64,000 nucleotides of DNA from an uncultured delta proteobacterium (GCA_963808625.1 CAWEHK010000036.1:62936-126935); one strand, 5' to 3'. Shown: positions 41,944-45,775, counted from the first letter of the stretch. Made by a program: numbers and translations. The notes: generated from the letters alone by a model not told the origin.

Positions 41944-42000
41944 TCAATCCCTGATGGCCACCCAAAGTCCCCCACTTGTGGCCACCTCAAAATCCCCCAC
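41944..42000 (+). repeat. IS21 left terminal inverted repeat
   Basis: CCCTGATGGCCACCCAAAGTCCCCCACTTGTGGCCACCTCAAAATCCCCCAC matches the reverse complement of the right end. Confidence 0.88.
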
Positions 42001-42093
42001 TAAACCATCCTGATTTCCCGGGAAGAATTGCTCCAAACGGCGACAGAACGTACAGCTCTCATTTGTAGAAATCACAAATGGGAGAGAGGAAGG

Positions 42094-44814
42094 ATGAACG
42101 TTTTGAAGCCAGATCTGCAAGTGACAATCAAGACATTGCTGGGTAAGGGTCTGAGTCAACGGGAGATCGAACGAAAGACGGGGATCGATCGAAAGACCAT
42201 CCGGAGGTATGCTCAGTCAACCAGTTTGATGAGGTTCCAAGAAACTGAGCATTCAAAATCCCCCACTGAGCAAGATGTGGCCACCGGGTCGGGAACGCCA
42301 TCCGTGGAAAATCCCCCACCCTGGCCACCGGCTCAGAAACCAAACTTCCCCAAGCATGTTCGTTCCGCCTGTGAAACGCATCGGGAGTGGATCCAGGAGC
42401 AGGTGAAGCTGGGCCGTAATGCCATGGCCATCTACCAGGATCTGGTGGAACTGTTCGGTTTCAATCACCGCTACAACAGCGTGAAGCGGTTTGTGCGGGG
42501 GCTCAAAAGACAAGACCCTCAGCAGTATGACCGACTGGAATTCTTGATGGGAGAAGAAGCCCAGGTGGATTATGGGCTGGGCGCACCGACTCTTCATAGC
42601 AGCGGGAAGTATCGGCGCCCCCGTCTGTTCATCATGACGTTGAAGTATTCCGGGCGTGCCTTTCGTAAAGTTGTATGGCGATCGAGCAAGGAAACGTGGG
42701 CCAAGCTGCATGAGGAAGCATTCCGCTATCTTACGGGGTGCCCCCAATATGTCACCCTGGACAATCTCAAGGAAGGCGTGATCAAGCCGGACATCTATGA
42801 GCCGGACCTTAATCCTCTCTATGCCGCCATGTTGGAGCACTACAAGGTGGTGGCGGACCCGGCGAGGGTCAGCGACTCGGACCGCAAGGGAACGGTGGAA
42901 AATGCGGTGAAACACACGCAGAACACCGCCCTGAAAGGACGCAAATTCGGCAGCATCGAGGCCCAGAATGAATGGTTGCTGCACTGGGAAAGTCGCTGGG
43001 CATCGCTGCGGATCCATGGCCGGGCCAAACGCCAGGTAGAGGAAATGTTTCAGGAAGAGAAACCCTATCTGACGGAATTGCCCCTGAGGCCGTTTCGCTA
43101 TTTTCAGCAGGAGACACGGACGGTCTACGATGACGGGACGATCCAGGTGGGCAACTCCTACTATGCGGCGAGTCCCGCTCCGTTAGGCAGTGAGGTGATG
43201 GTGCGGATCTTCGATGAAGAAATCGAGATTCTCGATCCTCGCCGGATGGAGGTCATTCGTCGACATCCAAAGAGTATGCGGGCGGGTTCCTTGATGATGG
43301 AACCCGGGGACCGGATCTTCAATCCGTCTCGGGAAACGGACAGACTGTTGGCCCAAGCCGAAGCCATCGGCCCGCACACCTTCGGCCTGTGCGAGAGATG
43401 GTTTAACGAAGAAGGGCGCAGCGGCCAACGCCGGATGTATGGCCTGGTTAATCTGGTTCGGCATTACCCGGCCGGCACCGTGGAGAAAGCGGCGGAACTG
43501 GCCAAGGACAATGGACTGAGAAGTTCCAAGGCCTTGCGGCGGATGGTGGAGAGCATGGCCGCGGAAGTCGGGGAAAGGAAGGTCGAACCATCCAAAGGGC
43601 TCACGCAAGACCATCCCTTGATTCGCTCGGGTGAAGACTACGCCGCCTTCTGGGATAAGCATGCCGCCCAAGCGGCGCCTGAGGCCGGAGTGAGCCCAAT
43701 CATCCGCCGGGAGCAACTGCCCCAAATCTGGCGGCAGGCCAGTTGGCTGAAGGTGATCGAGGTCTTTCAACTGAGTGTAGACCACAAGCGCCGCCGCCGA
43801 GACGATGAAATCTGGCTCAAATCACCGTTTACGCTTGAGGAGCAGGCCTCGATGCACGTCAGTTTATCGGCAAACATCTACAAGGATTTCAGCAGCGGCA
43901 AAGGCGGCGGTATCATGCAATTCTGCCGGGAGATGTTGCATGAGCAGGGTCGGGAAATGACCATGTTCGAAACAGCGCAATGGATGGTAGCCGAAGGAAT
44001 CTCCACGGCCAAGCCCGGAAACTTCCGTGCACACGGCCAGCGGCCGCAGCCAGAGGCAACAGGCCATCCCTTGGTCTCCAATCACACCAATCGCGCCATC
44101 GAAGTCGATCTGCGCCGTTATCTGCGCCCGGATCATCCCGAATGGCGTCGTCGGGGCATATCCATCGCCACCTGCCGCTACCTGGGCTGTGGGTATTTGC
44201 CGAAGCTCACCAACGGAACGGCAACCTCTCCCCTCAATTCCAGGTTAGTGTTCCAGATTCGTGGCCTGAGGGAAAACGGCCATGATCTTCAGCCGATTAT
44301 CCTGAGTCACAGCGGACGGGCACTCTCCCGGGAACAAGAAGACGCGGATGGGAAATACTGGAGCTATCCGTTCCGGAAAGGGTGGGAAATCTACAATCAG
44401 GATCACCTGCTGTTGGATGCCGAAGCTTGCCGTCAAGCAAACACTTTTGGCCTGGTTCTGGTGGAGGGGTTTTTTGATGTGGCCAAGCTGGTGGAAGCGG
44501 GTTGCCGGAACGTCGGCGCCTTGATGGGCACACACCTCTCCGGGGAACAGATCGAGCGGTTGGCGTGGCTTCGTTCCCGCATCCGGTTCCCTCGGATCGT
44601 GTTGTTTCTGGACCGGGACCAGGCCGGGCGCAACGGAGCCCGGCAGATACGCGAGCGACTTCGGGGTCACCACTTCGAGGTGAACGTGTTTGACTGGGAT
44701 CGGAACATCTCCTGGAATGGTAAACACCTTGAGCCGATCCCGGACGCTATCCAAGACCCGGCCGACATGCCGGTGGAACAACTTCAGCAGTTGCGCAGGG
44801 AAGGCATCATTTAA
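42094..44814 (+). CDS. istA: IS21 transposase IstA fused to a DnaG-like primase (zinc-finger-like domain plus TOPRIM catalytic core), 906 aa
   Basis: HTH (GLSQREIERKTGIDRKTIRRY); DDE residues in AQVDYG, TLDNLKEG, KGTVENAV; then SPFT..EQASMHV..YKDFSSGKGGG, RLVFQIR, SGRAL, KY, LVEGFFD, ALMGT, LFLDRDQAG and QDPAD. Confidence 0.88.
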   Translation: MNVLKPDLQVTIKTLLGKGLSQREIERKTGIDRKTIRRYAQSTSLMRFQETEHSKSPTEQDVATGSGTPSVENPPPWPPAQKPNFPKHVRSACETHREWIQEQVKLGRNAMAIYQDLVELFGFNHRYNSVKRFVRGLKRQDPQQYDRLEFLMGEEAQVDYGLGAPTLHSSGKYRRPRLFIMTLKYSGRAFRKVVWRSSKETWAKLHEEAFRYLTGCPQYVTLDNLKEGVIKPDIYEPDLNPLYAAMLEHYKVVADPARVSDSDRKGTVENAVKHTQNTALKGRKFGSIEAQNEWLLHWESRWASLRIHGRAKRQVEEMFQEEKPYLTELPLRPFRYFQQETRTVYDDGTIQVGNSYYAASPAPLGSEVMVRIFDEEIEILDPRRMEVIRRHPKSMRAGSLMMEPGDRIFNPSRETDRLLAQAEAIGPHTFGLCERWFNEEGRSGQRRMYGLVNLVRHYPAGTVEKAAELAKDNGLRSSKALRRMVESMAAEVGERKVEPSKGLTQDHPLIRSGEDYAAFWDKHAAQAAPEAGVSPIIRREQLPQIWRQASWLKVIEVFQLSVDHKRRRRDDEIWLKSPFTLEEQASMHVSLSANIYKDFSSGKGGGIMQFCREMLHEQGREMTMFETAQWMVAEGISTAKPGNFRAHGQRPQPEATGHPLVSNHTNRAIEVDLRRYLRPDHPEWRRRGISIATCRYLGCGYLPKLTNGTATSPLNSRLVFQIRGLRENGHDLQPIILSHSGRALSREQEDADGKYWSYPFRKGWEIYNQDHLLLDAEACRQANTFGLVLVEGFFDVAKLVEAGCRNVGALMGTHLSGEQIERLAWLRSRIRFPRIVLFLDRDQAGRNGARQIRERLRGHHFEVNVFDWDRNISWNGKHLEPIPDAIQDPADMPVEQLQQLRREGII

Positions 44815-44858
44815 AAAAAGCAATCACCGGATGAAAAAGAAAACAAGGAGCCAAACCG

Positions 44859-45659
44859 ATGGACATGCCGAACGCAGAAATCCAAAGACATCTTGGGGCG
44901 CTTCGCCTCCATGGTATGAAAGCCACCCTGGAGCCCCGACTCATTCAGGCCAATCAGGGCGCTTCCTTTATAGAGATGTTTGCCTGCCTGGTGCAAGATG
45001 AGCTCGATTGGCGGAGCTCAAGGCTTACTGAAACCCGCTTCAAGGCCTCCGGTCTCACAGAGCGACCCACTCTGACGGAATTCGATTGGGGCTTCAATCC
45101 GAAACTGCCCAAGAAGGAAATCTATGAACTGGTCAGCGGCAAGTTCATTCGAGACGGCGATGACGCCCTGCTGATCGGGGCGCCGGGAACGGGCAAATCC
45201 CATATCGCCAAAACGGTGGCCCACGCCGCCATCCAGACCGGCTATAAAGTCGTGTATCGGGAAGCTCACACCTTCTTCGAAGACCTCTTCGAAGCCACTC
45301 AGCTCAAACGGAGAAAAAAGATGACCAAGCTCTTCTCCGAAGCAGATCTCTTGGTCATCGACGACTTGTTCCTGCGAAAGAAAGTCAACGATCACGCTAC
45401 CGACGATTTGCTCGATATTATTCTGAATCGCTATTCCTCCAGGAAAAGTTCGATGATAACCTCAAATCGACCCCTGGAGGACTGGGGAAAACTCCTTTAC
45501 GACAATGCCGCCTCCTCGGTCATCCTGGACCGCCTCCTTCACCGGGGCCATCTGCTCAAGTTCGAAGGCAAAAGTTATCGCCTCAAGGAGGCATCGATCC
45601 GGTTGACGGAAAACAAACGAAAATCTCTGGATGAAAAAGGAATAAGCTTGGATCTCTGA
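44859..45659 (+). CDS. istB: IS21 helper AAA+ ATPase IstB
   Basis: TLTEFDWGFNP, Walker A GAPGTGKS, Walker B LLVIDD, ITSNRPLEDWG and ILDRLLHR...GKSYRL. Confidence 0.95.
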   Translation: MDMPNAEIQRHLGALRLHGMKATLEPRLIQANQGASFIEMFACLVQDELDWRSSRLTETRFKASGLTERPTLTEFDWGFNPKLPKKEIYELVSGKFIRDGDDALLIGAPGTGKSHIAKTVAHAAIQTGYKVVYREAHTFFEDLFEATQLKRRKKMTKLFSEADLLVIDDLFLRKKVNDHATDDLLDIILNRYSSRKSSMITSNRPLEDWGKLLYDNAASSVILDRLLHRGHLLKFEGKSYRLKEASIRLTENKRKSLDEKGISLDL

Positions 45660-45718
45660 GCAGATTAACGGTAGGTTATTTCTCTACTGTCGCCGAAGCA
45701 CTTCGACCCGACTACAGG

Positions 45719-45775
45719 GTGGGGGATTTTGACCCGGCCACAAGTGGGGGATTTTCAAGTGGCCATCCGGGTCCA
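45719..45775 (-). repeat. IS21 right terminal inverted repeat
   Basis: GTGGGGGATTTTGACCCGGCCACAAGTGGGGGATTTTCAAGTGGCCATCCGGGTCCA. Confidence 0.88.

Follow-up and report, generated by a model that had tools for sequence, protein, structure and literature searches.

Which task might a primase joined to a transposase perform for an insertion sequence (IS)? The question is raised by an IS21-family element in a stretch of 64,000 nucleotides from an uncultured delta proteobacterium (GCA_963808625.1, CAWEHK010000036.1:62936-126935), which as a whole is designated the window and whose first letter is position 1. Between its terminal inverted repeats, the element contains only two genes, one encoding a fusion of the transposase IstA with a DnaG-type primase core, which forms the C-terminal 385 amino acids (aa) of the protein, and the other encoding the helper ATPase IstB. 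We consider it somewhat probable (roughly 0.55) that the fused primase is catalytically active and acts on the transposition intermediate, i.e. that the element is self-priming, as had been proposed in a first-pass annotation made by a model from the sequence alone.

IS21 is a structural model for AAA+-regulated transposition, and yet what becomes of the second strand and what the IstA C-terminal tail does are not settled in the accessible part of PMC11208146. The existence of a successful natural lineage that bears a primase on this tail suggests that a step of DNA synthesis is coupled to the transpososome, and the fusion documents traffic of replication modules from conjugative elements into an insertion sequence.

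The fusion gene

The element (41949..45771, plus strand, 3823 bp) harbors one open reading frame (ORF) that extends from 42028 to 44814 and encodes 928 aa when read from a TTG codon. All homologs begin with MNVLKP, and the real start is therefore placed at the ATG at 42094, giving an istA::primase gene (42094..44814, plus strand) of 906 codons and a stop, in agreement with the 906-aa numbering of the first-pass annotation. As stated there, the frame runs from istA into the extension without a stop, and the landmarks named are found where they had been placed, the IstA-like end LTQDHPLIRSGEDYAAFW at 43600-43653 and the VEGFFD motif at 44461. The IstA part (42094..43680, plus strand) is composed of a helix-turn-helix (HTH), the DDE catalytic domain, a Mu-transposase-type beta-barrel (Mu-transpos_C_2, PF22483, residues 351-419) and a tail ending in IR.I.DY..F. 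It scores 240.9 bits with the NCBIfam IS21 transposase model NF033546 (cut-off 160), and the DDE residues D181, D245 and E291, which had been described as intact, are conserved in 98 of 98 full-length homologs (those of at least 850 aa in an alignment of 121 proteins, which also served for all other residue counts). The istB gene (44859..45659, plus strand) begins 44 nt downstream of the fused ORF and encodes an AAA+ helper ATPase of 266 aa, which matches PF01695 with 168 bits and NF038214 with 201.1 bits (cut-off 200).

The region around the junction (43600-43750), for which an independent check of the sequence had been suggested, is bridged by contigs of two independent DNA runs with one mismatch each and by two RNA-library runs. 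No indel is listed in these bridging contigs, and near-identical sequence across the junction is present in 20 runs from 17 studies. Contigs from metatranscriptome libraries (runs X15 and X17) cover the fusion gene including the junction between IstA and primase; such contigs are compatible with expression and do not prove transcription, and no claim of expression is made here.

The primase module

Searches with the extension yielded the DnaG and Toprim matches that had been anticipated. In Pfam, Toprim_4 was matched with an E-value of 6e-11 and Zn_ribbon_DnaG (PF01807) with 3e-4, the latter being under its cut-off. The dnaG model TIGR01391 was matched with an E-value of 2e-24 over its positions 188-337 of 414, the score of 82.6-86.5 bits being far under the cut-off of 283.6. 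When the PDB was searched with phmmer, DnaG primases alone reached significant E-values (1e-6). An AlphaFold2 model of residues 543-928 of the 928-aa frame (386 residues), calculated from a 30-sequence alignment, had a predicted local distance difference test (pLDDT) value of 89.8, with disorder confined to two linkers. The top Foldseek match of this model was the part of Aquifex DnaG that comprises the zinc-binding and the RNA-polymerase domains (2au3, E 4e-15), followed by the DnaG RNA-polymerase domains of five species (E 1e-9 to 1e-7) and then by T7 gp4, T4 gp61 and Twinkle. The isolated zinc-binding domain 1d0q was also matched (E 1.7e-5, template modelling score 0.72), whereas TOPRIM domains of nuclease and recombination proteins (RNase M5, RecR) reached E-values of only about 1e-2.

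The module is composed of three subdomains in the order known from DnaG. The first one (43705..44007, plus strand) resembles the DnaG zinc ribbon according to the PF01807 and 1d0q matches and had been described as a zinc-finger-like segment. This description holds for the ribbon fold, but not for the zinc ligands, none of which is present: S599, T602, D620 and S623 occupy the positions of the DnaG residues C, H, C and C in the alignment to 2au3. In a tally of S599, D620 and S623, all three proved invariant in the 98 full-length homologs. The family has thus kept the ribbon, but in a zinc-less form. The second part (44077..44442, plus strand) is the N-terminal subdomain of the DnaG RNA-polymerase domain with the motifs RLVFQIRG, GRA and GKYW. 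Its presence, and with it the DnaG-like domain order previously noted, is borne out by the TIGR01391 match, by Foldseek and by conserved basic residues in the region of the nucleoside triphosphate (NTP) site, with R739, R764 and Y777 found in 98/98 and K776 in 97/98 homologs. The third part is the TOPRIM domain (44443..44811, plus strand; VEGFFD, LDRDQAG, DPAD). Its catalytic acids had been listed as intact, and all six are kept throughout the family (E813, D817, D862, D864 and D910 in 98/98, D913 in 97/98).

The module thus shares with DnaG (TIGR01391) the order of zinc-binding-domain fold, N-terminal subdomain of the RNA-polymerase domain and TOPRIM as well as the acidic and basic active-site residues. 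It differs from DnaG by the missing zinc ligands, by the lack of both the C-terminal helical subdomain and the DnaB-binding domain, by an identity of only 19-24% to the solved DnaG structures and by its score far below the TIGR01391 cut-off. The protein terminates 15 residues past DPAD, its last acidic motif, the final helix of the model spanning residues 374-382 of 386, and the helicase-binding domain is therefore absent, as the first-pass annotation had also concluded. The module is thus no DnaG equivalog, but belongs to a clade of DnaG-like primases that are associated with mobilization. The host has a full DnaG of its own, which scores 421 bits (contig C23), and the primase of the IS is therefore no replacement for it. 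A third, weak DnaG-like match (26.7 bits) is located in a 672-aa open frame on contig C10 of the same genome (59315-60106), apart from the dnaG gene on contig C23.

The presence of a TOPRIM domain also allows for a function as nuclease, which would cut or trim the non-transferred 5' strand or flaps at the ends of the element in the manner of TnsA of Tn7 and thereby convert a 3'-nick-only reaction into cut-and-paste. Nuclease activity is another known function of TOPRIM domains, the weak Foldseek matches include RNase M5 and folds of the RecR type, the zinc ligands for the normal template reading of primases are lost, and the handling of the 5' strand by IS21 is undefined in the accessible text of PMC11208146. 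Nevertheless, we regard a nuclease function as quite unlikely, since the whole DnaG RNA-polymerase domain is kept, including R739, R764, K776 and Y777 of the N-terminal subdomain (97-98 of 98 homologs), primases are the best structural matches by many orders of magnitude, and the module is most closely related to stand-alone proteins of primase type from mobilization modules.

Family, selection and mobility

The fusion is no one-off, but a recurrent family. When proteins of 510-1624 aa were searched with residues 545-928, 551 matches were obtained, the best 120 of which had E-values below 1e-170 and were nearly all 900-920 aa in size with transposase and TOPRIM domains. At least 98 full-length homologs share the IstA-primase architecture. 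Among species-representative genomes, 65 loci were found in Desulfobacterota, Acidobacteriota and Omnitrophota, and the elements with the fusion have multiplied in several bacterial phyla. A fused ORF of at least 850 aa is present in 71 of the 117 loci that were inspected. In 62 of these 71, an istB-like ORF with a P-loop begins no more than 120 nt downstream; four loci are cut by a contig end, and five are of another kind. The search for further IstA proteins with the same extension, and for the layout of inverted repeat, istA, primase and istB, that the first-pass annotation had recommended was thus successful. Public names hide the primase, as the proteins are called 'IS21 family transposase' by NCBI and 'transposase/RNase M5' by JGI. 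In 401 sampled genomes of the window's phylum, a stand-alone query (E<=1e-20) gave matches in three only, namely in the window's own genome, in one with another fused form and in one with three stand-alone copies.

The primase subdomains are under purifying selection. Ratios of nonsynonymous to synonymous substitution rates (dN/dS), calculated pairwise against eight homologs with two values being saturated, were 0.07-0.13 for the IstA core, 0.10-0.29 for the zinc-ribbon-like domain, 0.10-0.22 for the N-terminal subdomain of the RNA-polymerase domain and 0.10-0.35 for TOPRIM, compared with up to 0.66 and 0.95 for the two linkers. An artefact of assembly or frameshifting, or a single decaying insertion, might be suspected because the adjacent PemK-like and McrC genes of the window are split between frames, and the latter case, with degraded residues and relaxed selection, had been named as one that would speak against a functional fusion. 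This explanation has a negligible probability: it is ruled out by the 98 full-length homologs, by a second copy in the same genome with 97% identity, by the independent DNA contigs that span the junction without indels and by the selection acting on the domains (dN/dS 0.10-0.35).

Elements carrying the fusion have transposed recently as whole units. Within strain NaphS2, a Desulfatiglandales metagenome-assembled genome (MAG) and a Terriglobia MAG, units of 3.72-3.80 kb are 99.7-100% identical between copies, and the same degree of identity is found among the four that another Acidobacteriota MAG contains. The ends of 14 copies from the first three genomes were examined, and in all 14 the termini are abutted by direct repeats of 4-8 bp. 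The copy count asked for by the first-pass annotation gave two for the window genome, and four other genomes contain 32 (many of them contig-end fragments), 9, 4 and 4 matches. The second copy in the window genome (L002, contig C35) encodes an intact 915-aa fusion, and everything to the left of its start codon, including the left element end, is missing.

Based on its transposase, its helper protein, the structure of its inverted repeats and, in relatives, the target duplication, the window element belongs to the IS21 family. Like the canonical members IS21 and IS5376, it has an IstA with HTH, DDE domain and beta-barrel that scores above the NCBIfam cut-off, an istB gene directly downstream and multi-repeat terminal inverted repeats, and its relatives show target duplications of 4-8 bp. 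Unlike canonical IS21 transposases, the fused IstA possesses about 385 extra C-terminal residues, whereas nine aligned unfused IstA proteins end at 500-509 aa.

Origin of the primase

An exhaustive HMMER search of cluster representatives with the module resulted in 1715 matches, 81 of which had E-values of 1e-30 or lower. The stand-alone relatives have a size of 340-470 aa (many of 355-430 aa), are 33-42% identical to the module across all 386 residues and contain the same catalytic residues and the same zinc-less ribbon. In a metagenome scan, 80 loci were obtained, of which about 31 were stand-alone and about 45 fused, the remainder being fragments. Twelve of the stand-alone loci were annotated, and in nine of them a MobA/VirD2 relaxase, MobC/NikA and/or a TraG/VirD4 coupling protein adjoins the primase, and ParA, Rep3 or integrases are often present as well; islands with restriction or integrase genes surround the remaining three. 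RP4 TraC and ColIb-P9 Sog are functional analogues of such mobilization primases. The stand-alone proteins form the nearest clade to the fused module, but they are encoded by separate genes next to those for a relaxase, MobC or a type IV coupling protein, whereas the window module is fused to a DDE transposase within an IS. In the sampled genome of the window's phylum that has three stand-alone copies, these loci (L077, L078 and L079, contig C2 of genome G279) belong to a repeat of about 9 kb that is present three times with 79-95% identity. Next to the primase gene, the repeat has one for a type IV secretion system pilin-like protein, whose match is weak and below the cut-off; it further encodes a membrane protein of 929 aa, a protein with a RES domain and an RNase T-BRCT protein and is probably an integrated conjugative-type element in several copies.

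When 67 rows were used for a quick maximum-likelihood tree with host DnaG, a long branch, as the root, all 24 fused modules together with P0124 formed one clade (SH-aLRT, a Shimodaira-Hasegawa-like approximate likelihood ratio test, 100) beside a clade of all mobilization-associated forms (SH-aLRT 92), the branching among clades not being resolved in this tree. Judged by these relationships, the module descends from primases of mobilizable or conjugative elements. A tblastn search of PLSDB plasmids and of phages with the module gave only distant DnaG and phage-primase matches with 22-32% identity and no close relative. P0124, the protein grouped with the fused modules in the tree, is a cluster representative of 383 aa and thus has the size of a stand-alone primase. 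It may have arisen by a secondary split, may reflect an ORF that was called wrongly or may be an unfused primase within an IS21 element; no relative of it was found in the metagenome scan.

The closest unfused IstA proteins (500-509 aa) are 53-57% identical to the IstA part over 97-98% of its length. The nine that were aligned end 5-15 residues past IR.I.DY..F, where the fusion runs into the primase, which indicates that a whole gene for a small, zinc-less and helicase-independent primase was joined end-to-start onto a whole istA, between istA and istB, and that this occurred once. An unfused istA-primase-istB ancestor was looked for among the loci and was not found. Two split forms, L054 and L064, were rejected as candidates for such an ancestor, because they are decayed, one by a linker deletion and a frameshift and the other by interruption with another gene; L036, L020 and L032 are also split in the ORF list, and the reading of split forms covered L054 and L064.

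These data bear on the possibility that the primase is a passenger, which is of use to the cell or to a host plasmid (e.g. in plasmid establishment), was fused by accident and has no role in transposition. Its relatives are genes of plasmids and of integrative and conjugative elements, and IS elements sometimes carry passengers. We consider this very unlikely, as in 71 of 71 fused loci the primase precedes istB and continues the reading frame of istA, the two apparent split forms that were read are decayed copies, the loci contained no unfused ancestor, and most of the copies seen are chromosomal and multi-copy.

A possible role in transposition

Published IS21 structures, as far as their accessible descriptions go, contain an IstA tetramer in the transpososome, and in the solved IS21 holo-transpososome IstA's C-terminal portion is flexible, with no role defined for it in the accessible text (PMC11208146). 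In the fusion, the primase would hang by a flexible linker from each IstA subunit and, because of its attachment to this flexible region, would be held near the strand-transfer junctions. Within the transpososome, it would lay short RNA primers on exposed single-stranded DNA of the element or the target. Such DNA could be offered by the forks that a Shapiro-type strand-transfer structure contains or, alternatively, by the displaced strand of a copy-out or tandem-junction form, and synthesis of the complementary strand across the element could begin before the host primosome arrives. The usual functions of IstA and IstB would be unchanged, i.e. end cleavage and strand transfer on the one hand and target capture and activation on the other.

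Self-priming by an active primase is suggested by three arguments. The metal-binding and NTP-site residues are kept beyond what a DNA-binding or scaffold role would need. The proteins most closely related to the module come from conjugative or mobilization systems, whose primases work on naked single-stranded DNA without a helicase partner. Finally, a primase attached to the flexible end of IstA would be positioned at the strand-transfer junctions. The 3'-end chemistry of the element produces intermediates for which DNA synthesis is needed. In a more far-reaching version, which we consider unlikely, the tethered primase, perhaps assisted by an interaction of the DnaC-like IstB with the host helicase, would initiate synthesis on a strand-transfer or copy-out intermediate and make transposition obligatorily replicative and independent of the host primosome; the element would then represent a bacterial DDE transposon with a priming step of its own. 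The present data lend no support to the further idea of the first-pass annotation that IstB and the primase constitute a minimal replication module.

Several observations weigh against self-priming. The case for primer synthesis is built on conserved residues only. All four zinc ligands have been lost from the module, and since template-directed priming by bacterial DnaG and by T7 gp4 depends on the zinc-binding domain, the enzyme may be weakly active or work in an altered way. Both forks of a Shapiro intermediate provide a 3'-OH, so that a primase would not be strictly required, and transposition of canonical IS21 elements proceeds in its absence. The known fusions represent a fairly narrow clade (at least 67% identity among the best 120 of the 551 matches), and the conservation therefore spans a limited evolutionary depth. 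Abutted right-end/left-end junctions, as expected of circle or tandem forms, were found in none of 164 loci, in no viral contigs and in none of five genomes, a negative result that says little, as assemblies rarely keep such forms. Furthermore, the window copy is not bordered by a target-site duplication, the left flank reading ..TTTCAAT (41935-41948) and the right flank TCCAGTC.. (45772-45785). Together with the lost left end of the other copy, this suggests that the window copy may have been rearranged, or recombined between copies, after insertion.

Some of the same features would suit a module that binds DNA without catalysis, recognizes single-stranded DNA or forks, such as conjugative single-stranded DNA or lagging-strand templates, and steers insertion to replicating or transferring DNA. 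Other transposons target forks or conjugating DNA, as known for TnsE of Tn7 and for IS200/IS605, and descent from primases tied to conjugative DNA processing as well as the strong conservation of the zinc-less ribbon would fit such a function. Pure binding has no need, however, of six metal-binding acids that are invariant or nearly so, and the TOPRIM domain has dN/dS values of 0.10-0.35, which is why we consider this explanation unlikely and prefer self-priming.

A self-priming IS21 element would have partial counterparts among known systems. Phage Mu likewise uses a DDE transposase with an AAA+ target-capture partner and forms a strand-transfer intermediate that must be replicated, but it relies on the host PriA/DnaB/DnaC/DnaG primosome, whereas the window element would bring its own primase. 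Casposons and Polintons are also mobile elements that encode part of their own DNA-synthesis machinery; they carry a protein-primed family-B polymerase, whereas the window element, with two genes, has a primase only and no polymerase. The IS-excision enhancer (IEE) of E. coli O157 belongs to the primases of archaeo-eukaryotic type, is encoded outside the IS and is not fused to a transposase; unlike the window module, it is no DnaG/TOPRIM enzyme. The likeness lies in a protein of a primase superfamily being functionally tied to IS movement, as IEE is described in the accessible text as a DNA polymerase that is active in microhomology-mediated end joining and promotes the excision of IS629 (PMC9943667). 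No published description of an IstA-primase fusion was found in the full-text open literature, ISfinder/TnPedia and non-open journals being outside this coverage, in accordance with the statement of the first-pass annotation that no IS21 of such architecture had been described.

Element ends and neighboring genes

The termini given in the first-pass annotation (41944 and 45775) were corrected to 41949 and 45771. The right one is the point where the two copies of the window genome cease to match, contigs from other sequencing runs depart into unrelated DNA exactly at 41949 and 45771, and both ends agree with those common to multi-copy relatives, CCCTGATGGCCAC...GTGGCCATCC(A/G)GG. The matched terminal inverted repeats themselves were correctly recognized; their arms of 37 nt are 89% complementary and built of a repeated motif, which is present twice at each element end and twice more inside istA. 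In the left repeat (41949..42001, plus strand), the motif TCAAAATCCCCCACT occurs at 41962-41976 and 41987-42001, and the right repeat (45719..45771, plus strand) also contains two copies. The internal copies (42253-42267 and 42306-42320, plus strand; ..AAAATCCCCCAC..TGGCCACCGG) pair with the right end and fall in istA codons that specify a poorly conserved linker between HTH and catalytic domain. They are likely to be transposase-binding sites that double as coding sequence.

The right end of the window element reads CCATCCGGG-3', that of a NaphS2 copy CCATCCAGG-3' and the complement of the left end CCATCAGGG-3'. As set by target duplications, the element ends (41949-41957 and 45763-45771, and likewise in L028, L021 and L037) are ...GG(G)-3', and CA, where present, sits 2-3 nt inside the end defined in this way. 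In this respect the ...GG-3' ends of the window element appear to differ from IS5376, for which CA-3' is named as the catalytic terminal dinucleotide in the accessible text of PMC11208146.

To the left of the element, a PemK/MazF-like toxin gene (41137-41489) is apparently split over two frames, and its second piece alone matches Pfam with 22.6 bits, just below the cut-off. Just to the right, a McrBC-type restriction locus is located on the minus strand (46001-48886), consisting of a gene for a McrB-like AAA_5 ATPase (47132-48886) and a McrC gene split into two ORFs (46506-47135 and 46001-46441).

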